A stretch of 35,243 nucleotides of DNA from Acetobacteraceae bacterium (GTDB taxonomy: Bacteria; Pseudomonadota; Alphaproteobacteria; Acetobacterales; Acetobacteraceae): contig JANXRT010000293.1 of the NCBI GenBank assembly GCA_025356735.1, positions 1 to 35,243 of the forward strand, given 5' to 3'. Below, piece by piece: positions 762 through 35,243 of this stretch. The position numbers were made by a program, and so were the translations under genes. Below the pieces are notes generated by a model. It was given only the letters and a program-made list of their open reading frames with translations, was not told where the DNA came from and did no database searches. Within the stretch, counting starts at the first letter, position 1. Each line of letters opens with the position of its first letter.

Positions 762-872
762 ACGCGACAGACCCCACGGGCGGCTTCTGGACGTTTGACA
801 TCGTTCCATAAAACCCAGCAGAGTTTGCCGGCGGGAAACGGACGACAGGTCCGTGCCGCGGGGGACGCCGAG

Positions 873-1901: not shown

Positions 1902-1935
1902 CGGCGCAAACCCCGATCCACAGGAGCCTGCGGCC

Positions 1936-3807: not shown

Positions 3808-3817
3808 GGGTTGCCGC

Positions 3818-5601: not shown

Positions 5602-5732
5602 GTCGGTTGCTCCGGCCGGTGAATGCCGCAGCGTGCCTCGCCGCGACCAACCCGGCAATCGGGGTGCCTGAAATCAATTGCGATAGCGGATAAAAGATGT
5701 AGGCTGCCCGGCAGATACGGGAGGCAACGATA

Positions 5733-6923: not shown

Positions 6924-6932
6924 TTTCTTTCG

Positions 6933-8869: not shown

Positions 8870-8872
8870 AGC

Positions 8873-9703
8873 GTGCACGGCGAAAAAGATTGGGCCGGGC
8901 GGGCGTGGGTGTTCGGGGTATGGAGCCTGGTCGGCTTCTTCATCCTCAATCTGGCGGCGATGATCGGCACGGTGGTGGTGAACTCGTTCGGCACGCGCTG
9001 GTTCGATACGTGGCTGCCGGCGAGCTACACCGTTCGCTGGTACCACCAGGCGTGGGACGAGTTCCAGCTGCCTGACATCCTGATCGTGACGATGGAGGTG
9101 GTCGGAGCGGTGGTGCTGGTCTCCGCTCTGATTGGCGTGCCGGCGGCCTATGGCATGGCCCGGCGCGATTTTCCCGGCAAGCGCGCGGTGATGCTGCTGT
9201 TCCTGCTGCCGCTGCTGGTGCCGCCGATCACCTACGGTATCCCGCTGGCGACGGTGCTGTACCAGGCCGGGCTGGCGGGGCGGATATGGGGCGTGATCCT
9301 GGCCAACCTGGTGCCGACGGTGCCGTTCGTCATCCTGATCATGATACCATTTGTCGAGCAGATCGACCCGCGGGTGGAGGCGGCAGCGCGGGTGTTTGGC
9401 GCCGGCACCGGGCGGTTGTTCGTGCGCGTGCTGGTGCCGCTGCTGGCGCCCGGCATCCTGGCGGCGCTGCTGCTGGTGCTGGTGCGCACGATCGCGATGT
9501 TCGAGCTGACCTTCCTGACCGCCGGTTCGGACAGCCAGACGCTGGTAGTGGCGCTGTACTATGCGGTGTTCGCCGCCGGCGTGCGCCCCGGCCAGTCGAT
9601 CGACGCTATGGCGGTGGTCTACATGCTGACGACGATGGTCTGGCTGCTGATCGCGCTGCGCTTCGTCAATCCGACGCAGATTGTGGTGCGGGGGCGGCGG
9701 TAG
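8873..9703 (+). CDS. ABC transporter permease
   Basis: 276-aa polytopic protein with an EAA-like loop (DPRVEAAARVFGAGTGRLFVRVLVP). GTG start 3 nt after the previous stop. Confidence 0.85.
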   Translation: MHGEKDWAGRAWVFGVWSLVGFFILNLAAMIGTVVVNSFGTRWFDTWLPASYTVRWYHQAWDEFQLPDILIVTMEVVGAVVLVSALIGVPAAYGMARRDFPGKRAVMLLFLLPLLVPPITYGIPLATVLYQAGLAGRIWGVILANLVPTVPFVILIMIPFVEQIDPRVEAAARVFGAGTGRLFVRVLVPLLAPGILAALLLVLVRTIAMFELTFLTAGSDSQTLVVALYYAVFAAGVRPGQSIDAMAVVYMLTTMVWLLIALRFVNPTQIVVRGRR

Positions 9704-13508: not shown

Positions 13509-15071
13509 ATGGCGGTGAAACCAAGGTGTGCCTGGCGAATGATCTTTCGACGCAGCGCTGGCCTGCTGGCGGCCCTGGTCCTGGCCGGCTGCACGGTGGG
13601 GCCGGATTTCGTGCCGCCCGACAGCGGCTCGCCGGCGGTGCTGACCGACCTCGATGGGCGCCGGACAAGCTTCGGCAAGCCGGCGGCGAGCCAACCGGTG
13701 GCGACGGCGGTCGATCCGGCCTGGTGGGCGCTGTTCAACGATCCGGTGCTGTCCGCCCTCGTCGAGCGGGTTGCCGATCAGAACCTGGATGTCCAGCTCG
13801 CCACATCGCGGCTGGCGGAGTCGCGCGGCCAACTCGGCATCACCAGCGCCTCGCAGTTCCCGCGGCTGAACGGATCGGCCGGATACGTCACGCAGCAGGC
13901 CAGCGGCAAGGGCATCTTCGGCCTGCTTGGCGGGGCGGCGGCCGGTAGCCAGGCGGGCGGCATCCGCGGCTCCCGGCTGCAGCCGTTCGATCTCTACAGC
14001 TATGGCTTCGACGCCTCGTGGGAACTGGATCTGTGGGGGCGGGTGCGCCGATCCATCGAGTCGTCCGATGCGGCGCTGACGGCATCCACCGAGGCGCGGC
14101 GCGATGCGTTGGTCTCGGCAATGGCGGAGGTGGCGCGCGACTACATCCAGCTGCGCGGCGTCCAAGCCAGCCTGGCAATCGCCGCGCGCAACCTGCGCAC
14201 CTCGCAACAGAGCTTCGGGCTGGTCCAGGAACGCGCCACCGGCGGCCTGGTTACCGATCTCGACGTCGCCAACGCCTCGGCCCAGGTCGCCACCATCGAG
14301 GCCGATTTTCCGCGGTTGCAGGCGCAGCAGGCACAGTTGATCAACGCGATCTCGCTGCTGCTCGGCCAGGAGCCGGGTGCCGTCGCCGCCCAGCTGCTGA
14401 CGCCCGCGCCGGTGCCGCCGGTGCCGCCGCGCGTGCCGGTCGGGCTGCCTGGCGAACTCGCCCGCCGCCGTCCCGACATCCGCCAGGCCGAAGCCGATCT
14501 GCATGGCGCCACCGCCGATATCGGTGTCGCGGTGGCCAGCTTCTATCCCAGCGTGACGCTGTCCGGCAGCGTCGGCATCCAGGCGCTGCGGCTGAAGGAT
14601 ATTTCCAACTTCGACGCGCACCAGTACACGCTGGGGCCCTCGCTCAGCGTGCCGATCTTCGATGCTGGCCGGCTCAAGGGCAATCTCGCCTTGCGCACCG
14701 CCCAGCAGCAGACCGCCGCCGTGCGCTACCAGCAGGTCGTGCTGCGATCCTGGCACGAGGTCGATAACGCGCTGACCGCCTACGATACCGAGCAGCGCCG
14801 CCGCGATGCACTGGGGCGCGCCGTCGTGCAGAACCGGCGCGCGTTGGCCCAGGCGCAAACCCGTTATTCCGCGGGGGTGGCGGACTTTCTGTCGGTGCTG
14901 GATGCCCAGCGATCCCTGCTCAGCACCGAGGACGCGCTGGCGCAGAGCACCGCGGCGGTGTCGGGAAATTTGGTTTCGATCTACAAGGCTTTGGGTGGGG
15001 GTTGGGAGACTGCGATGCCGGAGGAGGTAGCGCAGCATGGGACGCTGCCCCAAACCCGGCCCCACCTTTAG
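13509..15071 (+). CDS. Efflux outer-membrane factor lipoprotein, NodT family (TolC-like)
   Basis: Lipobox LVLAGC. PDF motif right after the Cys. The body has the two-repeat OMF pattern (LDVQLA..., FYPSVTLSGS..., IFDAGRLKGN...). Alternative start ATG 13539. Confidence 0.85.
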   Translation: MAVKPRCAWRMIFRRSAGLLAALVLAGCTVGPDFVPPDSGSPAVLTDLDGRRTSFGKPAASQPVATAVDPAWWALFNDPVLSALVERVADQNLDVQLATSRLAESRGQLGITSASQFPRLNGSAGYVTQQASGKGIFGLLGGAAAGSQAGGIRGSRLQPFDLYSYGFDASWELDLWGRVRRSIESSDAALTASTEARRDALVSAMAEVARDYIQLRGVQASLAIAARNLRTSQQSFGLVQERATGGLVTDLDVANASAQVATIEADFPRLQAQQAQLINAISLLLGQEPGAVAAQLLTPAPVPPVPPRVPVGLPGELARRRPDIRQAEADLHGATADIGVAVASFYPSVTLSGSVGIQALRLKDISNFDAHQYTLGPSLSVPIFDAGRLKGNLALRTAQQQTAAVRYQQVVLRSWHEVDNALTAYDTEQRRRDALGRAVVQNRRALAQAQTRYSAGVADFLSVLDAQRSLLSTEDALAQSTAAVSGNLVSIYKALGGGWETAMPEEVAQHGTLPQTRPHL

Positions 15072-19458: not shown

Positions 19459-21720
19459 TTGAGCGCGGTCGGACACAGCCTACCCGATCCGATGTTCGGG
19501 CGCACGGCACCGATCGCCTCGCCGCGCGTCGTGCATCCGGCCGGGCTCGACCGGACATCCGGCCTGTCGCCCGGCGCCGCGTTCCAGGTCCTGCGCCGCC
19601 GCCGCCTTGTCTTCGCGCTGAGCCTGGTGGGAATCCCGGCGCTTGCCTGGATCGCGTTGCAGCAGGCGGTGCCGCGCTATACCGCCGCCGCCATGGTGCT
19701 ATACGAGCCGACCGCCTATGCCGCGCGCGAGCTGCAAAGCGTTCTGCGCGCCGATCCGACGACCGAGCCGGTGATAAGCAGCCAGGCGGAGATCGTGCGC
19801 GGATTGCCGATCGCCGCCCGGGTGGCAGCCGAATTCCATCTTCACGACGATCCAGAATTCAACGCGGCGCTGCGCCGGCCCTCCTGGCTCGCACGGTGGC
19901 TGGACCAGGCGAGGACACTGACGGCGTGGTGGCGGTCGGACGAGCTTCCGGCTTCGAGCGGCCCGGCTTTGAGCAGCGATACACGTGACGAGGTGGAAAC
20001 CGCGGTGCGGGATGCCATTACCGCCGGCACCGCCAAGGCGTCGCGGGTGCTCGAGATCGGGTTCGCCTCGAAAGACCGCCGGCTCGCGGCCGACGCCGCC
20101 AACGCGATCGCGCGGCTGTACATCCAGGATCAAATCGACACCAAGATCGCGGCGGTGCATCGCGCCACCGCGTGGCTCGACAACCGCGTGGTCGAATTGC
20201 GCCGCGACGTGCTCGGCGCCGAGAACCGCGTCGCCGCGTTCCGGGCCGAGCGGGGACTGGTGCGCGGTGTACAGGCCGGGCTCGACACGGAACAGGTCAG
20301 CCGGATCTCCGCCGACCTGATCCAGGCGCGCAACGACGCGGCGCAGGCCGAGGCACGGCTGGATGGGACCCGCCTGGATGGCGCGCGCGGGCGCTCGGGC
20401 GCGGCGTTGCAGGCGGCGGTCGCGCCTAGCGTCGGACCGGCGCGGCTGCACCTGGACCAGCTTTCGGCGCAGCTGCAATCGCTGCGCACCCGGCTTGGGC
20501 CGAACCATCCCGAAACGATCGCGGCGCGCAGCCAGCTTGCCGACCTGCAGCGTTCGGTCGGCGCCGAGATCGGGCGCGCCGCCGCCGCGGGAGAGGCCGA
20601 ACTGCGTGTCACGCGCGGGCGTGTCGCCGGCCTGGAGCAGGTTTTGGCGCGCGCTCAAACGGTCGTCGCGCGTAGCGAACAGGCGCAGGTGGCGCTCAAC
20701 GTCCTGGAACGCGATGCGGAGGCCTTACGCGCCCAGCTCGCGGCGGTGCTGGAGCGCATCCAGGCGACCGTGCGGCAGAGCGCGATCGAGCTGGCGGACG
20801 CACGGCTGATCTCCGCCGCGTTACCGCCGGCTCAGCCCAGCTTTCCGCGGAAAGTGCCGCTGATGGCGGCGGCGTGCGTGTTCGCGGTGCTGTTCGGGTT
20901 GTTTCTGGTCTATCTGACGGAAGTATCCGATGACACTTTTCGAAGTGGCGACGACGTTCGTGCAAGGCTCGGCCTACGTTGCTTCGCGCTGATTCCCGAG
21001 GTCGGCCGCCGGCAGCTTGGCGGCGTGCGGATCGATCAGTACGCGGCGCAGAAGCCGTTGTCGCCGTTCGCCGAGCAGCTGCGCGCGCTGCGGGCGGCGC
21101 TGTGGCTCGGCCCGCACCGGCCGCGGGTCATCGCCATCACCGCGGCACGGCCAGCCGAGGGCAAGACCACCGTGGCGCTGTCGCTCGGCCGGATCGCGGC
21201 ACTGGCAGGCGAGCGCGTCGTGGTGGTGGATTGCGACATCCGCCAGCCGGCGCTCGGCCGCATCCTGCATGCCGACGGCAATCTCGGGCTGGTGGACTGC
21301 CTGCTTGGCCACGGCGTGCTGGCGGAGATCATTTGCCGCGATCCAGTGACCAGCCTCGACTACGTGCCGGCCGGCGCGCCGGAGGCCAACTCGCTCGGGC
21401 TGCTGATGTCGGATGCGATGATCGACGTGCTGGCGGCGTTGCGGGAGCGCTACGACCTCGTGCTGCTGGATGCGCCGCCGGCCTGCGCGATGGCCGATGC
21501 GCGGGTGGTGGCGCGGATGGCCGATGCCACCCTGCTGTGCCTGCGCTGGCGCAGCACGCCGCGCGACGTGGTCCGCCACTCGCTCGAGCTGCTGGCCGAG
21601 GCGCAGGCGAGTTCGGTCGGCGTGGTGCTGACGCGGGTCGATGCGGAGGCGCATCTGCGCTCGGGCTACGCCGACGCCGAAGTCTATCACGCGCGCTACG
21701 GCGGCTATTTCCGTGCGTGA
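19459..21720 (+). CDS. Polysaccharide co-polymerase / BY-tyrosine autokinase (Wzc/ExoP/GumC-like)
   Basis: N-terminal Wzz-like domain with a TM segment, then a long coiled-coil periplasmic region and a second TM segment. The C-terminal P-loop domain has Walker A ARPAEGKTT, A' VVVVDCDIRQP and Walker B DLVLLDAPP. Tyr-rich tail SGYADAEVYHARYGGYFRA. TTG 19459 or ATG 19492 start. Confidence 0.8.
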   Translation: MSAVGHSLPDPMFGRTAPIASPRVVHPAGLDRTSGLSPGAAFQVLRRRRLVFALSLVGIPALAWIALQQAVPRYTAAAMVLYEPTAYAARELQSVLRADPTTEPVISSQAEIVRGLPIAARVAAEFHLHDDPEFNAALRRPSWLARWLDQARTLTAWWRSDELPASSGPALSSDTRDEVETAVRDAITAGTAKASRVLEIGFASKDRRLAADAANAIARLYIQDQIDTKIAAVHRATAWLDNRVVELRRDVLGAENRVAAFRAERGLVRGVQAGLDTEQVSRISADLIQARNDAAQAEARLDGTRLDGARGRSGAALQAAVAPSVGPARLHLDQLSAQLQSLRTRLGPNHPETIAARSQLADLQRSVGAEIGRAAAAGEAELRVTRGRVAGLEQVLARAQTVVARSEQAQVALNVLERDAEALRAQLAAVLERIQATVRQSAIELADARLISAALPPAQPSFPRKVPLMAAACVFAVLFGLFLVYLTEVSDDTFRSGDDVRARLGLRCFALIPEVGRRQLGGVRIDQYAAQKPLSPFAEQLRALRAALWLGPHRPRVIAITAARPAEGKTTVALSLGRIAALAGERVVVVDCDIRQPALGRILHADGNLGLVDCLLGHGVLAEIICRDPVTSLDYVPAGAPEANSLGLLMSDAMIDVLAALRERYDLVLLDAPPACAMADARVVARMADATLLCLRWRSTPRDVVRHSLELLAEAQASSVGVVLTRVDAEAHLRSGYADAEVYHARYGGYFRA

Positions 21721-21748
21721 CCAGATCGGAGCCTCTTGCCGGCAGGTC

Positions 21749-23131
21749 ATGGCACTCGTGCTGTCGGCCGCCCTGCTCGCCTGGCCGGCGGCGTGGAACG
21801 GCTATCCGCTGGTGTTCTCTGACACCGGAACCTATCTGTCGCAGGCGATCCACCATTATCTCGGCTGGGATCGGCCGGCGGTTTACAGCCTGTTCCTGTA
21901 TCCGCTGCACTGGCAGGTCACGCTTTGGCCGGTGATCGCGGTTCAGGCGCTGCTGACCGCGTGGACGCTGCATCTGACCCGGCGCGTGCTGTGGCCGGCG
22001 GCGCCGATCTGGTTCCTGCCGGCGGTCGCGGCGGCGCTCGCGGTGTTCACCTCGCTGCCGTGGCATGTCGCGCAAATCATGCCGGACGTGTTCACGCCGC
22101 TGCTGGCGCTGGCGATGGCGCTGCTGGTGCTGGCGCCGGCGCGGATGCGGCGAGGCGACCTTGTCGGGCTTGGGCTGTTCGCGACATTCATGATCGCCGC
22201 GCATCAGAGCCACGTGCCGCTGGCGGTCGCGCTGCTGGCTGCGCTGATGGCGTCGCGGCGGTTTCTTGAGCAACGAGACGGGTTCGGCAGGCGCCGATGG
22301 GTTGCCGTGATGCCGCCTCTGCTCGCCTGCGTGATCCTGGTTGCGATGAACATGGCGGGGCACGGGCGGATGTCGCTGTCGCCCTACGGCAATGTCTTCC
22401 TGCTCGCCCGGCTGATCGAGGACGGTCCGGGCATGACGGCGCTGCGGCAGAACTGCCCCGCCGCCGGCTGGCGGCTTTGCGACCAGCTCGACCGGCTGCC
22501 GGTGGCGTCCGACGATTTCCTGTGGCGCGACGACAGTGCCCTGGCTCACGCCGGTGGCGCCAAGCTGGTCTCGGGCGAGGCCAACGCCATATTGGCCGCC
22601 GCCTGGCGGGCGGACCCCGCCGGCATCGTCGGCGGGTTCTTCGTGCGGGCCGCGCAGCAGGCGGCGTCCTTCGCCACCGGCGACGGGCTGGAAGCCTGGC
22701 CGCGCACCGTCACGCCGTGGATAGCGCGGGATTTCCCTGCCCTCGAAGCGGATGCCTATGCGGCGTCGCGTCAGACCGCGGGTCGGATGGCGGTGCCAGA
22801 CTGGCTAGGCCGGCTGCATGTCGGCGTCGCCATCGGCGGCATCGCCGGCTGCCTGGCGCTGCTGGCGCGTCGGCGGCGGGACCTCGCGTCCGGCTTCGCC
22901 GCCGCGGCGCTGGTCGCGGTGCTGGCCAACGCCGCCATTACCGGCGGGCTGTCGGGGCCGCACCGGCGCTATCAGAGCCGCGTCGCCTGGCTGCCGGCCT
23001 TCGTCGTCCTGCTCGCCGTGCCGCCGATGTGGCCCGGCCGGGCACCGGCGCGAGAGACCGCCAGGGTGTGGCTTGCCGCCATCTCCAACCCGCCCCGGCG
23101 CCTCGACAGCCTTGTGCCCGGCGAGGGCTGA
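21749..23131 (+). CDS. Uncharacterised polytopic membrane protein inside the EPS cluster (possible GT-C-like transferase or polymerase)
   Basis: In-frame ATG at 21749 in ORF 21641..23131. About 6-7 N-terminal TM helices, with an acidic first-loop segment VFSDTGTY. A soluble region of about 150 aa follows, then about 2 C-terminal TM helices. I recognise no family. Its stop overlaps the flippase start (ATGA-type, 1 nt). Confidence 0.55.
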   Translation: MALVLSAALLAWPAAWNGYPLVFSDTGTYLSQAIHHYLGWDRPAVYSLFLYPLHWQVTLWPVIAVQALLTAWTLHLTRRVLWPAAPIWFLPAVAAALAVFTSLPWHVAQIMPDVFTPLLALAMALLVLAPARMRRGDLVGLGLFATFMIAAHQSHVPLAVALLAALMASRRFLEQRDGFGRRRWVAVMPPLLACVILVAMNMAGHGRMSLSPYGNVFLLARLIEDGPGMTALRQNCPAAGWRLCDQLDRLPVASDDFLWRDDSALAHAGGAKLVSGEANAILAAAWRADPAGIVGGFFVRAAQQAASFATGDGLEAWPRTVTPWIARDFPALEADAYAASRQTAGRMAVPDWLGRLHVGVAIGGIAGCLALLARRRRDLASGFAAAALVAVLANAAITGGLSGPHRRYQSRVAWLPAFVVLLAVPPMWPGRAPARETARVWLAAISNPPRRLDSLVPGEG

Positions 23132-24552
23132 TGCGGTCGTTCGGCAAGCCCGCGTGGTCGAGCCCGGTGTTCTGGTCTGGGCTTGAGGCGGTGGTCTCCG
23201 GCGGGCTGTCGCTGCTGTCGGTGTTCGTCGTCGCGGCCATCATCGGCCCGGCCGAGCTTGGCGTCGGCGCCGCGGCGGTGGCATCGCATATCCTGCTGTG
23301 GGTGACGGTCAACGCGCTGTTCGCCGACGCCATCGTGCAGCGCGCCGACCTGCCGGCCGGGGTGGTCTCCAGCGCGTTCTGGGCCGGCATCGGGGTCGGA
23401 GGCGGCGGGGCGGCGGTACAGCTCGCTTGCGGCCTGCTGCTCGCCGCCTCGTTCGCCGATGCGCGGCTGTGGCCGATGTCGGCGCTGCTCGCGACGGCTT
23501 TGCCGGTGGTCGGCGCGGCCGGCATCGTGCAGGGATTGCTGACCCGGCAGGGCCGCTACCGCGCTCTGGCGCTGCGCGCGATCGTTGGCCAGGGGTTCGG
23601 CACGCTGGCCGGGATCGCGCTGGCTCGGCATGGCGCCGGCAGCTGGGCGCTGGTGGCGCAGCAATGGGTGGTCTCGGTCGGCGGCGCCGCGACCCTGCTG
23701 CTAGGCAGCGGCTTCAGACCCGGTTGGCGCTGCCACCGAAATGATATTTCGACGTTGCTGCGCGTCGGCCTGCCGCTGACCGCCAGCACGCTGCTGATGC
23801 AGGGCCGCTACCGGCTGTTCGCGCTCGGCATCGGCGCCCTCGCCGGGCCGGCGGCGCTCGGCCAGGTGCATCTGGCATTCCGCCTGGTGGACAGCGCGCG
23901 CGAGCTGATGATGACCGCGCTGTGGCGGCTGATGCTGCCTGGCATGGCGCGCTGCCAGCACGATCGGGCGGCGCTGCTCGGTTGCGTCGACCGCCAGCTC
24001 GGCCGTCTCGGCTGGGTCGTGTTTCCGGTTTGCGGCGGCATGGCCCTGGCGATGGTGCCGATGGTGACGGCGCTGCTGCCGCCGGTGTGGCTGCCGTCGG
24101 GCGAGGCCGCCTTGCCGCTGATCGGCCTGATGGCCTTCATCCTCATCGGCTTTCCGGGCGGCGTCGCGCTGGTCGCCGGCGGCCAGCCGATGTTCGCGCT
24201 GTTCACCAACGTCGCCGGATTGATCGCCGTGCTGGCCGGGCTGCTTCTGTTCCAGCCCCGCAATCCGATCGAGGCGGTGCTGGTGTGGACCGGCGCGCAG
24301 CTTCTGACCAACCCCTACAACCTGGCGATGAACGCGCGCCGGCTGGCGGTCGGCTGGCTGCGGCCGATGTGCGCGGGCCTGCCGGCGCTGCTCACGACCG
24401 GCGCCGCCGTGCTGGCGGCGTTCGCGCTGGCCGGCAATGGGGCGGAGCCAGTGCGGTTGCTGGTCGGCCGGGGCCTGATCGCGGCTGCCGTGTTCGTGCC
24501 GGCGGCGTGGTGGCTGCGTACCCGCCGTCCGGCCTGGAGCCTTGCGCTTTGA
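23131..24552 (+). CDS. Oligosaccharide/polysaccharide flippase (Wzx-like, MOP superfamily)
   Basis: In-frame ATG at 23131 in ORF 22297..24552. 473 aa with 12 or more hydrophobic segments. The overall pattern matches the Polysacc_synt flippase families. It is translationally coupled on both sides. Confidence 0.7.
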   Translation: MRSFGKPAWSSPVFWSGLEAVVSGGLSLLSVFVVAAIIGPAELGVGAAAVASHILLWVTVNALFADAIVQRADLPAGVVSSAFWAGIGVGGGGAAVQLACGLLLAASFADARLWPMSALLATALPVVGAAGIVQGLLTRQGRYRALALRAIVGQGFGTLAGIALARHGAGSWALVAQQWVVSVGGAATLLLGSGFRPGWRCHRNDISTLLRVGLPLTASTLLMQGRYRLFALGIGALAGPAALGQVHLAFRLVDSARELMMTALWRLMLPGMARCQHDRAALLGCVDRQLGRLGWVVFPVCGGMALAMVPMVTALLPPVWLPSGEAALPLIGLMAFILIGFPGGVALVAGGQPMFALFTNVAGLIAVLAGLLLFQPRNPIEAVLVWTGAQLLTNPYNLAMNARRLAVGWLRPMCAGLPALLTTGAAVLAAFALAGNGAEPVRLLVGRGLIAAAVFVPAAWWLRTRRPAWSLAL

Positions 24553-25376
24553 CCAGAACGCGCGCGGCGTCGGGCGTGCGCCTGCTGGGAACCGACTTCC
24601 TCGATGCCGGGCTGGAAGCGGTCGCCGGGCGGCTTTGCGCGCGGCCGGCCGACGCGCCGTTCGGCTATGTCGTGACCCTCAACGCCGATCATCTGGTGCG
24701 GCTCGCGCGCCGGCCCGAGTTGCGGCCGCTCTATGATCGGGCGGCGCTGCGGCTGCTGGATTCGCGCGTCGTGGCGCTGCTGTGCCGGTTGCTGCGGATG
24801 CCGGCGCCGGCGGTCGCGACCGGCAGCGACCTGACCGAGCGGATACTCGCCGGCGGCCTCGACGCGGGCGAGAAGGTGACGATCATCGGCCTGGCGGAAG
24901 CCTGGCTGCCGGCGCTGGTCGCGCGCTGCGGCCTGGCGCCCCCGGCCCATTTCAATCCGCAGATGGGCTTCGAGCACGATCCGGCGGCGATGGCCGAAGC
25001 GGTGGCCTTCGTGCTGGCCCACCCGGCCCGGTTCGTTTTCCTGGCGGTCGGCTCGCCGCGCCAGGAGAAGCTGGCGGCGGCGATCGAGGCGACCGGCCAG
25101 GCGACCGGGACCGGGCTGTGCATCGGCGCCGCGCTCGAGTTCCTGGCCGGGGCATCACGCCGTGCGCCGGGCTGGATGCGGGTCGCCGGGCTGGAATGGC
25201 TGCACCGGTTGGCCGGCGATCCGCGGCGGCTGGCGCGGCGCTACTTGCTTGACAGCCCGGCGGTGCTGCCGATGCTGCTGGCGGAAAAGTTTTCGATTGG
25301 CAGGCGCGCCAGCACCTCAGCGCGCAACCTGGCGCCGGCGTGGCCGCGATGGGCGGTGTCGTTGCGGCGGAGATAG
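24549..25376 (+). CDS. WecB/TagA/CpsF-family glycosyltransferase (GT26)
   Basis: Characteristic segments VVTLNADHLV, FVFLAVGSPRQEKL, GIGAALEFLAG and PGWMRVAGLEWLHRLAGDPRRLARRYL. TTG 24549 overlaps the flippase stop. Alternative start GTG 24576. Confidence 0.75.
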   Translation: MTRTRAASGVRLLGTDFLDAGLEAVAGRLCARPADAPFGYVVTLNADHLVRLARRPELRPLYDRAALRLLDSRVVALLCRLLRMPAPAVATGSDLTERILAGGLDAGEKVTIIGLAEAWLPALVARCGLAPPAHFNPQMGFEHDPAAMAEAVAFVLAHPARFVFLAVGSPRQEKLAAAIEATGQATGTGLCIGAALEFLAGASRRAPGWMRVAGLEWLHRLAGDPRRLARRYLLDSPAVLPMLLAEKFSIGRRASTSARNLAPAWPRWAVSLRRR

Positions 25377-26305
25377 TCCCTGGCCCGCGGCGGTAGGACC
25401 CGCCTCGCGGCGACGGAGGCGGGTTGCCGCGACATCCGGACCGCTTCCGCAATTGCGCGGACGGAGGTTCCGAAAAGCCCGTGGCGCGCGCCCTTGAACA
25501 GGTAGGCGGCGATGCGCGGCAGCAGCTTCGGCCACGGCATCGACCATTTTCGGGCGATGTAAAGGCGGTTGCGGACGAAATAGAACCAGCGCCGGTCGGA
25601 CCAGGTCACCCGGCCCTCTGCGCTGGCCCGGTGGCGCACCGCGATATCGCCGCGATAAAGAATGCGCCAGCCGCGGGCGATGGCGCGGAGCGAGAAGTCG
25701 AACTCTTCCCAGCAGAAGAACAGCGCCGGATCGTAGCCGCCGGCATCGTCCCAGGCGCTGCGGCGGATGGCGTGTCCGGCGCCGACGAACGTCGGAACAT
25801 CGAATTGGCCGGCGGCACGTGGCAGCAGGGATTTCGGAAAACCCCAGGATGTCAGGTCGTCGTCTCCGCTTGCGTGCACCAGGATGCGAAAGGCAATCGC
25901 GGCCACATCCGGCTCCGCGTCGATCGCGGCCACCGCGCGCGCGGCCGTGGCGGCGTCGAAAAATTCGGCGTCGTTGTCGAGTGCGACGATCACCCTGCCA
26001 TGGCCGACGGCGCTGGCGAGATTGCGGCCGCCGGCGACTCCGAGGTTGACGCCGGAGGCGAACAGGCCGGCGTCGGCACGACCAAGCATGGCGTCGGCCA
26101 ACCGAGAAAGGTTGGCCGGCGTGGAGCCCTGGTCGATGATCGTCAGGTGCCACCGGCAGCCGGCCTGGCGGAACACCGAGGCGATCGCCTGCTCGGTCTC
26201 CTCGATGCGGTCGAGCGCCAGCAGGATGATGTCGGCGTCGTAGGGCTGCGACGGCGGATGCACGGCGCCGGCGCGGTGAAGCCCCGGCGGGACGGCGCCG
26301 GTCAA
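25241..26305 (-). CDS. Family-2 glycosyltransferase
   Basis: GT-A N-terminal fold: DADIILLALDRIEETEQAIASV...IIDQGS...NLGVAGGRN...VALDNDAEF (DxD). The candidate TTG start at 26305 overlaps the upstream stop (TTGA). The ATG at 26368 would overlap that gene by 67 nt. Confidence 0.75.
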   Translation of the reverse strand: MTGAVPPGLHRAGAVHPPSQPYDADIILLALDRIEETEQAIASVFRQAGCRWHLTIIDQGSTPANLSRLADAMLGRADAGLFASGVNLGVAGGRNLASAVGHGRVIVALDNDAEFFDAATAARAVAAIDAEPDVAAIAFRILVHASGDDDLTSWGFPKSLLPRAAGQFDVPTFVGAGHAIRRSAWDDAGGYDPALFFCWEEFDFSLRAIARGWRILYRGDIAVRHRASAEGRVTWSDRRWFYFVRNRLYIARKWSMPWPKLLPRIAAYLFKGARHGLFGTSVRAIAEAVRMSRQPASVAARRVLPPRARDYLRRNDTAHRGHAGARLRAEVLARLPIENFSASSIGSTAGLSSK

Positions 26306-27723
26306 TACGCGTTGGTCCTGCGTATCACCACGATCGCGGTGCGCAGCAGGACCTTGAGGTCGAGCCACAGCGACCAGCGCTCAATGTATTCGAGGTCGCT
26401 GTCGACGCGCCGTGCCAGCCGGTCCTCGGTGTCGGTCGGGCCGCGCAGACCGCGGACCTGCGCCAGCCCGGTCAGCCCTGGGCGCACCCGGTGGCGGGAG
26501 GCGTAGTCGGCGACGACCTCGTCGAACAGGCGTCCGCCGGCGCGGGTGCCGGGCGCGTGCGGCCGCGGCCCGACGATCGACATGTCGCCGGCCAGGGCGT
26601 TGAAGATCTGCGGCAGCTCGTCGAGCGAGGTGCGGCGCAGGAAGAAGCCGACGCGGGTGATCCGGGGATCGTCGTGAACCGCCTGCCGGCTGCCGTCGGC
26701 ATCGGCGAAGCGGTGCTGCATGGTGCGGAACTTGAGCATCTCAAAGTCGCGGTTGTTGAACCCGGTGCGGCGCTGGCGGAACAAGGCGGGGCCGGGGCTG
26801 TCGAGGCGGACCGTGACCGCGACGATCAGCATCGGGATGGCGAACACGATCAGCGCCAGCACGCCGAGGAAGACATCCTCGGCGCGCTTGACCAGGCTGG
26901 TCCAGCCCGATAGCGGCGGCTCGGTGAGGTCGATCAGCGCCGGCGGGCGGTCGCGGTCTCGGTGGTGAAGGTCGCGACGTTCAAAGTCGGGCGCCAGGCG
27001 GACGCGCACCGGGTACTCGGCCAGCCGCCGGATGAGTTCGAGCACCGGCGAGCGGGCCGACCAGGGCAAGGCGATGATGACCTGGTCCACGGCGCCGTCG
27101 CGGATCAGCTCCAGCAGCCGTGGCAGCCCGCCGAGATAAGGCAGCCCATCCGCGGGTGGCTCCGAGGACTGGTCGTCGATGTAGCCGAGCCATTCCGGCG
27201 CGATGTCGTCGCCGCAGCCGCCCACAAGCAGCAGACCGGCGGCGACGGTGCCCCGGCCGACCAGCACGGTGCGCATCGCGTAGCGTCGGGCGGTGTGGCC
27301 GGCCAGGAGACGGGCGACGCCGCGGCGGGTTGCGGCCACGACGCCCAGCGCGATGACGCCGCCGCCGCCCAGGGCCAGCGGCGAAATGGCCTGGGTCCGG
27401 AACACCAGCAGGATCGCCGACATGGCGGCGAATGCCGCGCAGGTGCCGATGATCCCGGCACGCAGGAATGGCGCGCGGCGCAGGATCAGCTTCGGCGAGT
27501 AGCCCCCCGCGGTGGAGATCATGGTCAGCGCGAGGGAGGTGGTGAGCAGCACGGTTTCGCCCTCCATCGAGGCATCAATGGAGGAGCCGGAAAGCCGGCA
27601 GGCGAGTAGTGTGACGGCGGCAAGCCCGGCCGCCTCGATCATGGCGATGGCGGCGATCATGCCCAGCATCGTTGCCGGCTCGGCGGGGTGGCTGCGAAAA
27701 CTATTTCTGCCGGGCTGGAACAT
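26302..27723 (-). CDS. Polyprenyl-phosphate hexose-1-phosphate transferase (priming phosphoglycosyl transferase, WbaP/ExoY type)
   Basis: N-terminal TM bundle plus a central domain. The C-terminal bacterial sugar-transferase domain contains LFRQRRTGFNNRDFEMLKFRTM, DDPRITRVGFFLRRTSLDELPQIFN, MSIVGPRPH and RPGLTGLAQV. Confidence 0.85.
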   Translation of the reverse strand: MFQPGRNSFRSHPAEPATMLGMIAAIAMIEAAGLAAVTLLACRLSGSSIDASMEGETVLLTTSLALTMISTAGGYSPKLILRRAPFLRAGIIGTCAAFAAMSAILLVFRTQAISPLALGGGGVIALGVVAATRRGVARLLAGHTARRYAMRTVLVGRGTVAAGLLLVGGCGDDIAPEWLGYIDDQSSEPPADGLPYLGGLPRLLELIRDGAVDQVIIALPWSARSPVLELIRRLAEYPVRVRLAPDFERRDLHHRDRDRPPALIDLTEPPLSGWTSLVKRAEDVFLGVLALIVFAIPMLIVAVTVRLDSPGPALFRQRRTGFNNRDFEMLKFRTMQHRFADADGSRQAVHDDPRITRVGFFLRRTSLDELPQIFNALAGDMSIVGPRPHAPGTRAGGRLFDEVVADYASRHRVRPGLTGLAQVRGLRGPTDTEDRLARRVDSDLEYIERWSLWLDLKVLLRTAIVVIRRTNAY

Positions 27724-30792: not shown

Positions 30793-31299
30793 ATGCTGGC
30801 GTCCCGCGTCGTCAAGGTAGCGATGGTCGCCTCCGTCGCGCTGCTGACGTTGCTGGTGACGTTCGACAACCTCACGAACTACGACGCCAACTTTCAGTTC
30901 GTCCGGCACGTGCTCAGCATGGACACCATTTTTCCGGACAATCGGCTGGCCTATCGGGCGATCACCAACCCGACGCTGTGGCACGTTGCCTACGCCGCGA
31001 TCATTCTCGGCGAGGGGCTGACCGGCGCCGCCCTCGCCGTCGCCGCAGTCGGCCTCGCGCGCAACCTGCGCGCCAGCGCCGGGCGGTTCCGGCGCGCCAA
31101 GCAATTCGTGTTCATCGGCGCCGGGATCGGCTTCGTGGTCTGGTTCTTCGGCTTCATGGTGATCGGCGGCGAGTGGTTCGCGATGTGGCAATCGCCGCTT
31201 TGGAACGGTCAGCAGGCCGCGTTCCGCTTCTACGTGACGCTGCTGGCCGTGCTGATTTTTGTCAATCAGGACGATCCCGAACTGAGCCAGCTGTCATAG
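30793..31299 (+). CDS. DUF2165-family small integral membrane protein
   Basis: 168 aa with 4 hydrophobic segments. N-terminal NLTNYDANFQFVRHVLSMDT and internal WF.MWQS..WNG match DUF2165 as I recall it. Confidence 0.65.
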   Translation: MLASRVVKVAMVASVALLTLLVTFDNLTNYDANFQFVRHVLSMDTIFPDNRLAYRAITNPTLWHVAYAAIILGEGLTGAALAVAAVGLARNLRASAGRFRRAKQFVFIGAGIGFVVWFFGFMVIGGEWFAMWQSPLWNGQQAAFRFYVTLLAVLIFVNQDDPELSQLS

Positions 31300-31314: not shown

Positions 31315-31369
31315 CCCCGGGGCGTTACCCCAATGCTTATGGGTGGGCCGGGGTTTGAGGCAGAGCCCC
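31315..31369. repeat. REP-like GC-rich palindromic element (expanded copy) spanning the stop codon and last codons of the ABC exporter gene
   Basis: Read on the minus strand it is GGGGCTCTGCCTCAAACCCCGGCCCACCCATAAGCATTGGGGTAACGCCCCGGGG. The minus-strand copy at 16053-16012 is TTGGGGCTCTGCCCCAATCCCCGCCGGGGGTAGCACCCCCGG. The flanking modules are shared. This copy has about 15 extra nt that contain the TAA stop (31337-31339). Confidence 0.5.
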
Positions 31370-33535
31370 GTGCTGCTGCGGCTCACTGGCAACCCGCCGC
31401 CTGCCCGCGCCCGCCGGCCATAGCGGCACCACCCGATCCGCCATCTCGATGGTCGAGCGGCGATGGGCGACGATGATGCGCGCGATCGGCAGCGAGCGGA
31501 TCGCCTCGTTGATGGTGCGTTCGTTGTCGTCGTCGAGATGGCTGGTGGCCTCGTCCAGCAGCAGTATGCGCGGGCCGCGGAACAGCGCGCGGGCCAGCAC
31601 GACGCGCTGGATCTGGCCGCCCGAAAGCGAACTGCCCATGTCGCCGACCAGCGTCTCGTAACCCATCGGCATGCGCAGGATTTCCTCGTGGATCGCCGCC
31701 AACCGGGCCGCGTGCTCGATCAGCTCGCGGTCGAAGCTCTGGCTGAAGGCGGAAATATTCTCGGCGATCGAGCCGGCGAACAGCCTGTCGTCCTGCAGCA
31801 CGCAGCCGATCTGGCAGCGGTAGTTCTCGAGACCCATGGCGCGCACCGGCACGCCGTCGAGCATGACCGTGCCCTCCGACGGCTGCAGCAGCCCCGCCAG
31901 TATCTTCAGCAGGGTGGTCTTGCCGGCGCCCGACGGCCCGACGATCGCCACGCACTCACCAGGTGCGACGTCGAAGTCGAAATCGGCGAGCACCGGCGCC
32001 TCGTTGTCGCCGTAGCGGTAGCCCACTCCCCGCGCGGCGAGCGTCGCGCGGGCGCGGCGGGGTGCGGCCGCGCCGTGGGGCACCAGCGTCGTGGCGGCGC
32101 CGGTTTCCTCGGGCTCGGCCAGGGCGATGTCGGCGATGCGCTCGCCATGCAGGGTCAACAGCTTGAGGTGTATGATGGTGTCCATCAGGGTGGCGAGCCG
32201 CTGCGAGAACTGGTCCTTGTAGGCGAGGAAGGCGACCAGCATGCCGATCGTCAACGAGCCGCCCATCACCGCGCGGGCGCCGAAATAGATGATCAGGATC
32301 CGATCGAGACCGAACAGGATGGTGTTGGCGGTCTTGTAGAGCAGGTCGAGCTTGCTGACGCGCAACTCGGCGCTGACATGGTCGACCAGGTAGTTGTTCC
32401 AGGCCGCCTGGCGGCGGTCGCCGATGACCAGCGCCTTGATGCTCGGCATTCCCCGAAGCGTCTCGATGAAATGCGAGTTCTCGCGCGCGCCATAGATGAT
32501 CGCCTCCTCGCTGGCGGCGCGATAGACCTTGTAGGCGACGCTGCGCAGGAGGCCGTAGATCGCCATGATGGTAATGGCGAGGCCGGCCAGGAACGGGTTG
32601 TAGAACCACATCACGATGACCAATCCGATCGACATCACGCCATCCACGAGGCCGGACACCGGGCCGGTGGTCAGGGTGCGCTGGATCGTTTCGAGCGAGG
32701 CGAAGCGCGAGGCGAGGTCGCCGACGTGGCGGCGCTCGAAGAAGCCGAGCGGCAGGCGGAGCAGATGGCGGAACAGGCTCATCTTCCATTGCAGCGTCAG
32801 CTGGGCACCGGCGGCCATGATCGACCAGGAACGCACGAAATCGGTCAGGGCGCGGAAGCCGAGCAGCAGGCCGAGGCCCAACGCGATCAGCACCAGCAGG
32901 TTGGCGTCGTCGGAGACGATGACGTCGTCGAGCACGAGCTGAAAGCCGATCGGCGTGACGATGACGATGCTTTCGAGGAAGAAAGACAAGGTCAGGATGC
33001 GCAGGGCCGCGCCGGCGAAGCCCTGGGTGCGGCGCACCATGTCGAAGATGCCAACCCGGGCGCGTTCGGTGCGGCGCTCGAACGTCTGGCTCGGCCAGGC
33101 CTCGAGTGCGATGCCGGTGAAGCGTTCGGACGCCTCGGCAAGCGGGATCTTACGCGCGCCGAGCGCTGGGTCGAGGATGGTGAGGCTGCGGCGGCCGACG
33201 CCGGTCAGCACGACGAAGTGGCTGTGATCCCAGTGCAGGATGCAGGGCAGGCGCAATTCCGCCAGGTTCGAGATGTCCGCCTTGAGGGCGCGGGTGGATA
33301 GCCGCATCTGTGCGGCGACACGGACGATGTCGTGCAGGGTCATGCCCTTGAGCGAGACGTCGTAATGGCTGCGCAGCGCCGGCAGGTCGATGCGATAGCC
33401 GTAACGGCCGCCGATCATCGCGAGGCAGGCCAGGCCGCATTCAGCGGCCTCGGTTTGCAGCACCAGGGGCGTGCCCCGGGCGCGCAGCAACGCGGTGTCG
33501 AGCCGGTGGGTCGCACTTCTGCCCGCGTCGCTCAC
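31337..33535 (-). CDS. Peptidase-C39-domain ABC exporter (CvaB/bacteriocin-processing type)
   Basis: C39 domain has Gln/Cys in LQTEAAECGLACLAMIGG, His in HSHFVVL and Asp in ILDPALG. A 6-TM domain follows. NBD: Walker A GPSGAGKTT, signature LSGGQIQRVVLARA, Walker B ILLLDEATSHLD, H-loop IIVAHR. It is colinear with E. coli CvaB from memory. The GTG at 33535 overlaps the HlyD stop (GTGA). Alternative start ATG 33580. Confidence 0.9.
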   Translation of the reverse strand: MSDAGRSATHRLDTALLRARGTPLVLQTEAAECGLACLAMIGGRYGYRIDLPALRSHYDVSLKGMTLHDIVRVAAQMRLSTRALKADISNLAELRLPCILHWDHSHFVVLTGVGRRSLTILDPALGARKIPLAEASERFTGIALEAWPSQTFERRTERARVGIFDMVRRTQGFAGAALRILTLSFFLESIVIVTPIGFQLVLDDVIVSDDANLLVLIALGLGLLLGFRALTDFVRSWSIMAAGAQLTLQWKMSLFRHLLRLPLGFFERRHVGDLASRFASLETIQRTLTTGPVSGLVDGVMSIGLVIVMWFYNPFLAGLAITIMAIYGLLRSVAYKVYRAASEEAIIYGARENSHFIETLRGMPSIKALVIGDRRQAAWNNYLVDHVSAELRVSKLDLLYKTANTILFGLDRILIIYFGARAVMGGSLTIGMLVAFLAYKDQFSQRLATLMDTIIHLKLLTLHGERIADIALAEPEETGAATTLVPHGAAAPRRARATLAARGVGYRYGDNEAPVLADFDFDVAPGECVAIVGPSGAGKTTLLKILAGLLQPSEGTVMLDGVPVRAMGLENYRCQIGCVLQDDRLFAGSIAENISAFSQSFDRELIEHAARLAAIHEEILRMPMGYETLVGDMGSSLSGGQIQRVVLARALFRGPRILLLDEATSHLDDDNERTINEAIRSLPIARIIVAHRRSTIEMADRVVPLWPAGAGRRRVASEPQQHGALPQTPAHP

Positions 33536-34809
33536 AGGCTTTGCGCCCCGTGCAGGCTGTAAAGCGGCTCCAGTATCCATTGATAGAGCGGACGCGCCTC
33601 CAGCAGCACGAGCGCATCGACCTGCATGCTGGCGCGCAGCTTTTCGGGCCGCCCGAAGGCTGTGACGTCCTGGCGGTCCGGCGTCACCACCAGCCGGTAG
33701 AAGGTTTTTCCGGTGTCGGCCGGCGCGGCGCCGGGCACCAGGGCGCGGAGCTCGTCAGCCTGCAGGGCGGCGTGCGAGACCTCGGTCAGGGTGCCCCAGT
33801 ACTGGCCAAACTTCTGATAGGGGAAGGCGGTGTAGCGCAGCCGGACGCGCTGGCCGGGATGGACGAAGCCGATCGAGTTGCTGGGGGCTAGCAGCTCGGC
33901 TTGCATCTGCTGCTGGTCGGGCACGATGGTCAGCACGCGCGCGCCGGCGGCGACGAGCTGGCCCGGGTGGCTGGCGAGCGCGGTTACCGTGCCGGCGGCG
34001 GTGGCGTGGATTTCCAGCGAGCGGCGCGCCTCGGCCGCGGCGACCTGCTGCTCGATCTCGAGCATCTTGGCGCGCATCTCGCCGATCTCGTTGTCCGTCT
34101 GTATGCGGGTGGTCTGCTGTTGGGACCGGGCCTCGATCAGCTGCGCCTGGACGCGCAGAGCAACGCTGCGCAGCTCCTCCAGCTCGTCCTTGGCGCGCAT
34201 CCAGGTTGCCTGCTGGTTGTTGCGCTCGTTCATGTTGCCGATGCCGGTCTGCACGTAACGGTTGTAGTCGGCTAGGTTCTTCGCGAGGCGGGCGGCGAAC
34301 TCGTCCTTGACGCCGAGCTGGACCTGCGTCTGGCGAGCCTGTTCCTGGAGGTTGTCGATGCGGCTTTGCTGTATCGCCTCCTGCTGCTCCTGATATCGTT
34401 GCTTGAGCGCGATCTGCTCGGTGAGCAGAACGTGGTGGCTGGCGAGCGACCGCAGGATCTGCTGCTGGGTGTCGCCATTGCTGGTCGATGTTTCGAGGTT
34501 GAGGACGTAGAGCAAGGTGCCCGCGACGACGTGCGCGTTGTCCTGCACGGCGACCGCCTCGATGCGGCCGGATGCCGGCGCGGTGGCCTGGATCAGGCCG
34601 GTGGTCGGCAGCACGACGCCATGCAGTTCGACCCGGCGGGCGTAGCCGCCGTAGAGGAGGATTGCCAGCGCGGCGGCGACGGCGACCACCGAGGCAAAGC
34701 TCAGCACGGTCACGGGGGCGCCCAGGGCGAGGGTGTGGCGGCCTAGCCATGCGGCCTGGCGGGCATCGAGCGACTCTGGCCGGAACAGTTCTTGCCGGGT
34801 GACGCTCAT
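33532..34809 (-). CDS. HlyD-family membrane fusion/adaptor protein (CvaA-like)
   Basis: The ATG at 34809 gives MSVTRQELFRPESLDARQAAWLGRHTLAL. This parallels the CvaA N-terminus MFRQDALENRKMKWQGRAILL. It has one TM segment, a long coiled-coil region (Q/E/A/R-rich) and a C-terminal beta-barrel region. 425 aa. Confidence 0.85.
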   Translation of the reverse strand: MSVTRQELFRPESLDARQAAWLGRHTLALGAPVTVLSFASVVAVAAALAILLYGGYARRVELHGVVLPTTGLIQATAPASGRIEAVAVQDNAHVVAGTLLYVLNLETSTSNGDTQQQILRSLASHHVLLTEQIALKQRYQEQQEAIQQSRIDNLQEQARQTQVQLGVKDEFAARLAKNLADYNRYVQTGIGNMNERNNQQATWMRAKDELEELRSVALRVQAQLIEARSQQQTTRIQTDNEIGEMRAKMLEIEQQVAAAEARRSLEIHATAAGTVTALASHPGQLVAAGARVLTIVPDQQQMQAELLAPSNSIGFVHPGQRVRLRYTAFPYQKFGQYWGTLTEVSHAALQADELRALVPGAAPADTGKTFYRLVVTPDRQDVTAFGRPEKLRASMQVDALVLLEARPLYQWILEPLYSLHGAQSL

Positions 34810-34852
34810 TCGGGAAGCCCAGTCATCGTTGCGGCGTCGTGTCTGGCCGTGA

Positions 34853-34880
34853 GATCCCCCGGCCATTCGGCCGGGGGATC
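34853..34880 (-). promoter_or_regulatory. Perfect 12-bp stem / 4-nt loop hairpin between the peptide gene and the exporter genes (candidate partial terminator or processing/stability element)
   Basis: GATCCCCCGGCC-ATTC-GGCCGGGGGATC. It lies 19 nt after the peptide stop and 44 nt before the HlyD start. There is no U-tract on the transcribed (minus) strand. Confidence 0.5.
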
Positions 34881-34898
34881 TTTCGCAGAGGCGAGAGG

Positions 34899-35108
34899 CT
34901 AGAGCGAGAGGTTGATGCCGTTCCCGTTGCCGATGTTCACGGTGTTGCCATTCGCACCTTCTTTGCCGCTGTAGTTGCCGCCCTTGATCACCACTTCGTT
35001 GTTGTTTCCGTTGTAGCTGCCAATCGAATACTGCCGATTGTCATTGCCGCGACGGCCGCCGGAGACCAGATCGAGTTCGCTGGTGCTCAGTTCGACGAGT
35101 TGGTTCAT
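34899..35108 (-). CDS. Double-glycine-leader peptide precursor (class II microcin/bacteriocin-like), 18-aa leader plus 51-aa Asn/Gly-rich core
   Basis: MNQLVELSTSELDLVSGG|RRGNDNRQYSIGSYNGNNNEVVIKGGNYSGKEGANGNTVNIGNGNGINLSL. The leader fits the L-S-x-x-E-L-x-x-(I/V)-x-G-G consensus. GGGAGA SD at 35115-35120, 6 nt from the ATG. It lies directly upstream of, and co-oriented with, the C39-ABC/HlyD exporter genes. Confidence 0.8.
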   Translation of the reverse strand: MNQLVELSTSELDLVSGGRRGNDNRQYSIGSYNGNNNEVVIKGGNYSGKEGANGNTVNIGNGNGINLSL

Positions 35109-35243
35109 GGTTATTCTCCCATTTTTTTAGTTGATGAAAACGCCGCGAAAAAGGGCTACGTACAACAATATACGCTGAAACGATTGAGCATATTATTGGA
35201 CGTATTCCTCGTCCCCGCAAGCGAACCGTAACGACATGGGTGC
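35109..35243 (-). promoter_or_regulatory. Upstream region of the peptide gene (SD plus probable promoter), AT-enriched
   Basis: My hand count is 61 G+C in 135 nt, and about 38% G+C in the 92 nt nearest the gene. SD GGGAGA. TATATT (reverse complement of 35167-35172) is a possible -10. I see no convincing -35. The window ends here. Confidence 0.35.

Follow-up and report, generated by a model that had tools for sequence, protein, structure and literature searches.

When a double-glycine (GG) peptide locus is met in a Gram-negative bacterium, it is nowadays interpreted as a matter of routine as the locus of a microcin, i.e., of an antibiotic. Whether this reading holds is the question raised by a locus at the end of contig JANXRT010000293.1 of an Acetobacteraceae bacterium (assembly GCA_025356735.1), a stretch of 35,243 nucleotides (nt) that was analyzed over its whole length and is referred to here as the window. 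Its minus strand carries three co-oriented open reading frames (ORFs), which encode a precursor peptide of 69 amino acids (aa), an HlyD-type adaptor of 425 aa, and an ATP-binding cassette (ABC) exporter of 732 aa. A first-pass annotation, made from the letters of this DNA, had described them as a complete locus for the production and export of a class II microcin-type peptide. Judged from its sequence, the locus is a real three-gene operon for the processing and export of a double-glycine peptide, and in this respect there is nothing exceptional about it, since loci of this kind are known and have by now been catalogued widely. What appears to be new, from the comparison with related loci, is the conserved pairing of the peptide with a large protein that is built from the same repeat.

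The peptide export operon

The precursor gene (34899..35108, minus strand) was taken from the list of ORFs and their translations. It consists of 18 leader codons (35055-35108), the codons of a 51-aa core (34902-35054), and the stop codon (34899-34901), and direct reading places a Shine-Dalgarno sequence, GGGAGA, 6 nt upstream of its ATG (35115..35120). The translation begins with the leader MNQLVELSTSELDLVSGG and continues with the core RRGND...INLSL. Read off this leader, the two glycines stand at positions -2/-1, hydrophobic residues at -4 (V), -7 (L), -12 (L), and -15 (L), and a Glu at -8, and the length falls within the range of 15 to 25 aa, all as in double-glycine leaders. In Pfam, the match to the Bacteriocin_IIc leader had an E value of only 0.085. 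An AlphaFold2 model of the peptide, built from 82 sequences, has a helix at residues 9 to 15, and the leader is the only part modeled confidently.

The second gene (33532..34809, minus strand) encodes a periplasmic adaptor of the HlyD family, identified by its Pfam matches (HlyD_3, 4.6e-12; HlyD_D23, 8.5e-9) and presumed to act in a CvaA-like role. It scored 94 bits against the TIGR01843 model (type_I_hlyD), which is below the cutoff, and it is 69% and 48% identical to the adaptors of two related loci, L022 and L023, respectively. Its start is best placed at the ATG at 34809 (MSVTRQELFRPE, 425 aa) and not at the ATG at 34866 chosen by the ORF finder, which sits in the loop of a hairpin. The gene calls on identical contigs likewise give 425 aa for the adaptor and 732 aa for the exporter.

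The exporter gene (31337..33535, minus strand) starts with a GTG at 33535 that overlaps the adaptor stop codon as GTGA. Its product matches Peptidase_C39 (3.6e-34), ABC_membrane (4.1e-39), and ABC_tran (3.2e-33) in Pfam and was aligned over its full length to the structures of PCAT1 (4RY2, 6e-84), ComA (8HF4), and HlyB (7SGR). The C39 peptidase domain covers residues 21 to 150, approximately (33086..33475), as located by alignments to LahT (6MPZ, 1.7e-19) and ComA, and its residues Q27/C33/H106/D122 fall on the catalytic Q11/C17/H96/D112 of ComA. The protein thus combines a C39 domain that has the catalytic Cys, His, and Asp and the oxyanion Gln with transmembrane and nucleotide-binding domains in one polypeptide, which is the makeup of a peptidase-containing ABC transporter (PCAT). 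It stays below the cutoff of every NCBIfam equivalog model, the best being TIGR03796 with 489 bits versus a cutoff of 853. Assignment to the repeats-in-toxin (RTX) type of type I secretion system (HlyB/HlyD/TolC) is contradicted by the presence of the catalytic Cys and by a TIGR01846 score of 390 bits versus a cutoff of 726.

In its anatomy, therefore, the first-pass annotation was accurate: the three co-oriented minus-strand genes, the Shine-Dalgarno sequence and double-glycine leader of the 69-aa ORF, the CvaA-like adaptor, the exporter that keeps Gln, Cys, His, and Asp, and the GTGA overlap are all present as it had described them. The same is true for the host-like, GC-rich codon style, with GC contents at third codon positions (GC3) of 0.89 for the exporter gene and 0.87 for the adaptor gene, compared with 0.78 to 0.93 among the window's remaining likely genes. 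Calling the locus complete was an overstatement, because the operon contains neither a gene for an outer-membrane factor nor an immunity gene, and because it is truncated by the end of the window, 135 nt upstream of the small ORF.

Given the homology of the leader, the intact C39 domain, and the ABC-HlyD pair, the operon very probably cleaves and exports its peptide. The 69-aa precursor would be translated from its strong ribosome-binding site, the amphipathic helix of the leader would dock in the C39 domain of the exporter, and this domain would cleave after Gly18. The 51-aa core would then be pumped out in an ATP-driven step by the ABC-HlyD pair and an outer-membrane channel that is encoded elsewhere.

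This arrangement is like that of the microcin V system (CvaC, CvaA, CvaB, TolC, Cvi) in its small GG-leader precursor, in an adaptor and a C39-ABC exporter that are encoded together, in an outer-membrane channel encoded elsewhere, and in the coupling of cleavage to export. It differs in the lack of an immunity gene, in the alphaproteobacterium-like host, and in the core, which resembles neither MccV nor any other microcin family and is hydrophilic and Asn/Gly-rich, whereas that of microcin V is hydrophobic and Gly/Ala-rich. The comparison with microcin V-type architecture thus stands for the layout of GG precursor, HlyD adaptor, and C39-ABC exporter and fails for the core. In the same way, the label "class II microcin type," which implies an antibacterial activity, fits a precursor of less than 10 kDa with a GG leader beside a CvaA/CvaB-like pair, and does not fit with regard to an immunity gene or sequence kinship. 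The systems of PCAT1 (Clostridium thermocellum), ComA, and LahT are alike in that their exporters are homologous to ours and conserve the catalytic residues, but they work without an HlyD adaptor and without an outer-membrane step.

Loci of this kind occur well beyond our window. A genome scan with the adaptor returned relatives of at most 42% identity from Mesorhizobium, Pelagibacterium, Methylobacterium, Paracoccus, Nitratireductor, and some betaproteobacterial metagenome-assembled genomes, and at most of these loci one to three double-glycine ORFs lay immediately upstream of the adaptor gene, so the synteny that the first-pass annotation had asked about is frequent in other genomes. The cores of these ORFs were mutually unrelated (Pro-rich, Gly/Ala-rich, or made of Lys-Gly repeats). 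Eighty adaptor loci from soil metagenomes were similar, with double-glycine ORFs upstream in several of those inspected. This indicates that the architecture is common and its cargo hypervariable, which fits reports of widespread systems (PMC12219008). The first-pass annotation had described such systems as characterized mainly in Enterobacteriaceae; outside this family, systems of GG peptide and PCAT have ceased to be unusual (PMC12219008; PMC4997328). Another unusual class of low-complexity cargo was seen in front of two betaproteobacterial adaptor genes (L018, 6487-6699; L019, 1263-1436), where the cores of the GG peptides are of the Lys-Gly/His-Gly kind (GKGKGKGK...HGHGHG) and finish in Cys motifs.

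The peptide core and a large protein of the same repeat

The 51-aa core has a mass of 5.3 kDa (about 5342 Da), an isoelectric point (pI) of 9.4, and a grand average of hydropathy of -1.04. It contains 13 Asn, 11 Gly, and no Cys, and its sequence indicates a strongly hydrophilic peptide without a membrane-active segment. No microcin family in Pfam or NCBIfam matched at an E value of 1 or less, in agreement with the earlier statement that the core is unlike known microcins. The cargo does have relatives. Against NF038167, "CTB family bacteriocin," the precursor scored 30.6 bits (E = 2.8e-7; cutoff, 32), a precomputed match to Pfam PF28158 is flagged as weak, and the orthologue in L022 reached only 14.7 bits against NF038167; membership of the cargo in the CTB family (NF038167/PF28158) is hence borderline.

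Single-sequence searches, also proposed as a check, gave essentially nothing: a word-indexed search with the peptide found only the peptide itself, and phmmer, run against 1.84 billion representatives, added two much larger proteins (4438 and 481 aa), each with several matching stretches. Relatives came within reach only with a profile of nine peptides, which retrieved 89 proteins of about 70 aa, all metagenomic and named only "hypothetical protein." Their cores resemble GSFNGNGSHDGNGNGN...NGNIxIG, and many carry a precomputed PF28158 match. The kind of peptide is therefore catalogued already, in the form of some 90 similar metagenomic peptides of ∼70 aa, and we place the cargo, by sequence similarity, in a loose and uncharacterized class of Asn/Gly-rich double-glycine peptides that NCBIfam and Pfam call "CTB." The CTB family is annotated mainly in cyanobacteria and is like our peptide in its length of about 70 aa, its GG leader, and its Asn/Gly-rich core. 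What sets the subfamily of the window apart is a leader of its own, VELxxxELDLVxGG, and its link to a large repeat protein; in the literature, we found nothing that ties the CTB family to a protein of this kind.

The large protein came to light on public contigs. The 69-aa sequence is present on three of these, two of which are identical to the window (L001 and L003), while the third (L002) differs from it at 2 of 1,324 nt (99.85% identity). On L002, a co-oriented gene 502 nt upstream of the peptide gene encodes a full-length protein of 575 aa (P0002), with units such as ...ISVANSGNNDGNNNTVAIGNANGI... and ...IGSHDGNANTVAAGNGNGVNIHL. The repeat unit is GNxDGNGNxVxIGNGNG-h-x-h (h, hydrophobic), laid out as strand, GNxDGNGN, strand, GNGNG, strand; the RTX nonapeptide was not seen, the repeats here being GNxDGNGNxVxIGNGNG. 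Three homologues (P0003, P0004, and P0005) have identities of 44 to 29%. None of the large proteins has a Pfam or NCBIfam match, and all four are free of a signal peptide, a double-glycine leader, and a transmembrane segment. Their pI of 4.0 to 4.5 and their contents of Gly (16 to 19%), Asn (10 to 14%), and Cys (0 to 0.8%) make up a composition that looks typical of exported repeat proteins. A cryptic leader was considered for them (KHGG in P0002, DLGG in P0003) and rejected, as the hydrophobic register is absent and P0004 and P0005 have no GG.

Several lines of evidence connect the two proteins. A hidden Markov model (HMM) based solely on 36 repeat units of the large proteins gave scores of 17 to 41 bits for five small cores (19.0 bits for that of the window), and for no core did any of 500 composition-preserving shuffles reach the observed score (z = 6.6 to 15). 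A repeat finder detected similarity between the large gene and the peptide gene at the DNA level as well (61 to 80%), and both large proteins and small peptides finish at their extreme C terminus in GN(G/Q/D)(N/D)G(V/I)-x-h-x-h. On the strength of this repeat homology, we are confident that the peptide core corresponds to one condensed unit of the large protein's repeat.

The pairing is also a matter of gene order. In 4/4 loci (L002, L022, L023/L024, and L025), the gene for the large protein has as its neighbors at least one small gene for a double-glycine peptide and a gene for an HlyD adaptor; L022 and probably L023, whose contigs extend far enough, show a PCAT gene as well. Large gene and peptide gene point the same way in L002 and L022 and run divergently in L023/L024 and L025.

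The same homology could be taken to mean that the small ORF is without function, a piece from the 3′ end of the large repeat gene that was duplicated and is open by chance, since its core is homologous to the repeats of that gene and the same C-terminal motif ends both. We consider this very improbable. The small ORF has a complete consensus double-glycine leader that is absent from the large gene, as well as the strong ribosome-binding site described above and a GC3 of 0.79. L022, L023, L025 (with two copies), and L109 each have a diverged homologue immediately before a homologous adaptor gene, so that, with the window, the ORF precedes a matching exporter in five diverged loci, and the homologues share both the leader VELxxxELDLVxGG and the C-terminal motif GNGNG(I/V)-x-h-x-h. 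The proportion of nonsynonymous differences (pN, 0.07 to 0.26) was below that of synonymous differences (pS, 0.32 to 0.66) in every pair, although the comparison is biased, being made on segments chosen for their conservation. The conservation beside exporter loci that the first-pass annotation had named as a check is thus present. With its ORF, leader, and C-terminal motif kept in five diverged loci, the small ORF is a genuine gene rather than a product of chance.

Partner subunit, antibiotic, or signal

What, then, does the exported peptide do? We favor, tentatively, a role as a secreted partner of the large repeat protein over one as a stand-alone antibiotic, with an antibacterial role as a close rival. 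The partner role is favored because the peptide is a single unit of the large protein's repeat, because the two genes have remained neighbors through deep divergence, even where their relative orientation has changed, and because there is no immunity gene and the core lacks membrane-active character. The exported peptide would work together with the large protein, as a subunit of one repeat unit that would bind to an extracellular beta-repeat assembly, cap it, or nucleate it. Taken as a whole, the explanation of the locus as a GG-peptide export operon whose cargo partners a large repeat protein seems to us evenly balanced between being right and being wrong. By analogy, one may go further and imagine a hitherto undescribed two-part extracellular assembly in soil Alphaproteobacteria, formed by a short one-unit subunit secreted through PCAT and HlyD and a long Asn/Gly-repeat protein, with an exporter that may handle both via GNGNG-h-x-h; this extension we regard as rather doubtful.

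Functional amyloids with long and short paralogues are known from curli (CsgA/CsgB), Fap (FapC/FapB), and the long and short chaplins of Streptomyces. As in the loci described here, a multirepeat protein and a shorter protein share a strand-turn-strand unit with Gly/Asn-rich turns and are encoded together. These systems differ from ours in their machinery, with Sec signal peptides and either dedicated outer-membrane channels or sortase in place of a GG leader and a PCAT. We found no Curlin_rpt match and no N-terminal signal peptide in the large proteins and no gene for a CsgG/FapF-type channel in the window, and it is only the logic of long and short paralogues that our locus would seem to share with curli and Fap.

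Small exported proteins with a role outside antibiosis have been described in Synechococcus elongatus, where four proteins with double-glycine secretion motifs, EbfG1 to EbfG4, make biofilm development possible (PMC4997328); EbfG1 to EbfG3 have a propensity for amyloid formation, and EbfG4 belongs to the cell surface and the extracellular matrix (PMC9981879). The EbfG1-4/PteB system is like ours, going by its published description, in that small GG-motif proteins are associated with an exporter (PteB) and serve biofilm formation rather than an antibiotic purpose. It is unlike ours in its cyanobacterial host, and no large paralogue of the same unit has been reported for it.

A number of observations weigh against the partner role. 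The large gene lies outside the window, and its presence in this genome is deduced from the near-identical contigs. In a coevolution test, the small cores were no closer to the repeats of their own neighbor than to those of other loci. AlphaFold2 left the core of the peptide unstructured, with a predicted local distance difference test score (pLDDT) of about 40, and gave an unusable model (pLDDT, 27) for the large protein from an alignment of four sequences. The large protein has neither a leader nor a signal peptide that would take it out of the cell, and exporters with an active C39 domain are not known to carry substrates with C-terminal signals. A sister subfamily of Asn/Gly-rich peptides (L094, L103, L107, and L108), which has the leader EPVELIDADLDAVAGG and usually two peptide genes in tandem, has no large repeat protein in its flanks; such peptides can therefore function without one. 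Finally, many double-glycine peptides encoded beside PCAT/HlyD pairs in Gram-negative bacteria have proved to be antibacterial (PMC12219008).

The last two points speak equally for a true class II microcin-like bacteriocin, i.e., an Asn/Gly-rich peptide that kills related bacteria, with self-protection by the exporter or an unlinked gene and with the repeat protein as an evolutionary source of the core, a decoy, or an immunity factor. We take this to be a serious possibility, short of thinking it probable. In its favor, the locus is laid out like those of the microcin V type, the curators of the nearest family named it "CTB family bacteriocin," and the double-glycine peptides found to be antibacterial in the large screen were diverse as well as many (PMC12219008). 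The hypervariable cargo among related exporters would be expected under arms-race selection, and the cassettes of the relatives in the sister subfamily lie amid transposases or genes of integrative elements, as bacteriocin islands often do.

The case for a bacteriocin is weakened, on the other hand, by the cargo itself, which is strongly hydrophilic and matches no known microcin or bacteriocin family above the cutoff, and by the label of the CTB family, which appears in the literature only as annotation, no functional or activity data having been found. Nor is there, next to the peptide gene, a gene for a small inner-membrane immunity protein, which served as a criterion in PMC12219008: no ORF lies between the peptide and adaptor genes or in the 135 nt upstream, the spacer of L002, from which alone the region past the window end is known, holds only an unconvincing 53-aa ORF with a TTG start, and the compact cassettes of the relatives contain no immunity gene either. 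The sole membrane protein encoded nearby is a small integral membrane protein of the DUF2165 family (30793-31299, plus strand), whose gene is convergent with that of the exporter, with 37 nt between the stop codons. We rejected it as an immunity protein, given this orientation and the presence of a different gene (AAA_22) after the exporter in L022. Lastly, a bacteriocin leaves unexplained the conserved pairing with a homologous repeat protein.

It is improbable that the peptide is a secreted signal for quorum sensing or development, processed like ComC to the competence-stimulating peptide. PCATs do export signaling peptides in other bacteria (PMC7018657, PMC7595303), and a gene for a LuxR-type regulator lies near the exporter in L022. 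However, no sensor kinase or response regulator is linked to the operon in the window, the 51-aa repeat-type core is conserved as a structural motif, unlike short and fast-diverging pheromones, and the homology to a 575-aa repeat protein would be without an explanation.

Between the partner role, which we prefer, and an antibacterial one, the consequences differ. The repeat-homologous cargo and the lack of an immunity gene suggest that part of the CTB class may have structural or surface roles, as EbfG proteins do. If this is true, genome-mining pipelines overcount bacteriocins, and bacterial matrix systems would gain a new route for extracellular protein assemblies. Should the peptide turn out to be antibacterial, it would represent a new class of microcins, hydrophilic and Asn/Gly-rich, from Alphaproteobacteria.

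Expression signals and surroundings of the operon

Behind the peptide gene, in the intergenic region before the adaptor gene, lies a perfect 13-bp GC-rich hairpin, AGAUCCCCCGGCC-GAAU-GGCCGGGGGAUCU (34852..34881, minus strand; fold z = -3.8). It has no U run, and the terminator scan made no call there, owing to the lack of a T tract. A strong GC-rich hairpin follows the peptide stop codon in all five loci (the window, L022, L023, L025, and L109), each with a different sequence. A hairpin in this position commonly serves to raise the level of precursor mRNA above that of exporter mRNA. We think that the hairpin is probably a partial terminator or an mRNA-stabilizing stem, i.e., an attenuator or stabilizer without a U tract, and that it probably holds the peptide mRNA above the exporter mRNA in the same manner.

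Upstream of the peptide gene, the window ends within an AT-rich 5′ region (35109..35243, minus strand; 45% GC versus about 67% for the window), and a scan of these 135 nt for consensus promoters revealed nothing resembling a sigma-70 site. On L002, this AT-rich spacer extends over 502 nt to the stop codon of the large repeat gene. It contains a 15-nt inverted repeat (1463-1503; GAAAGTTACGTTGCT / AGCAACGTAACTATC, with an 11-nt spacer), which could serve as an operator or as a terminator of the large gene. Scans with Rfam and for tRNAs found nothing. The window (at 35243), L001 (at 1), and L003 (at 1) all stop at one and the same position, 135 nt before the small ORF, while L002 reads through this point (at about 1756) and differs by one base 5 nt away (gcaccc versus gcactc). 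The shared contig end suggests that the assembly graph branches within the AT-rich spacer, with strain variation, a repeat, or a rearrangement as the cause. A metagenome scan with the alignment of the large proteins produced 600 pattern hits, none of which was confirmed.

On the downstream side, the exporter gene of L022 is followed (6771-9022) by the gene for an AAA_22 ATPase (535 aa) and then by one for a LuxR/GerE-type regulator, neither of which stands beside the operon of the window. With regard to the outer-membrane channel, the window encodes a stand-alone outer-membrane efflux lipoprotein of the NodT family (13509-15071, plus strand; TIGR01845, 370 bits), 16 kb from the operon. The flanking ORFs that were checked (an M20 peptidase and a serine acetyltransferase) are not efflux components, and the protein is below the cutoff of the TolC type I model; from its family, it is a possible outer-membrane partner of the exporter.

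The remaining genes belong to other functions. Ordinary metabolism and transport occupy positions 1-9703, with a 2-hydroxyacid dehydrogenase, a TRAP transporter (DctP and a DctQM fusion), an RraA-like protein, a protein of the isocitrate/isopropylmalate dehydrogenase family, and an ABC importer of the sugar type, none of them tied to the export operon. About 4 kb from the operon lies an exopolysaccharide cluster (19459-27723), which encodes a Wzc/ExoP-like chain-length tyrosine kinase (19459-21720), a Polysacc_synt_3 flippase (within 22297-24552), a transferase of the WecG/TagA family (within 23922-25376), a GT2 glycosyltransferase (25241-26368), and a Bac_transf priming transferase (26302-27723). 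A tie between this cluster and the secreted peptide is speculative. The GC content of the cluster, 0.71 to 0.73, is above that of the rest of the window.

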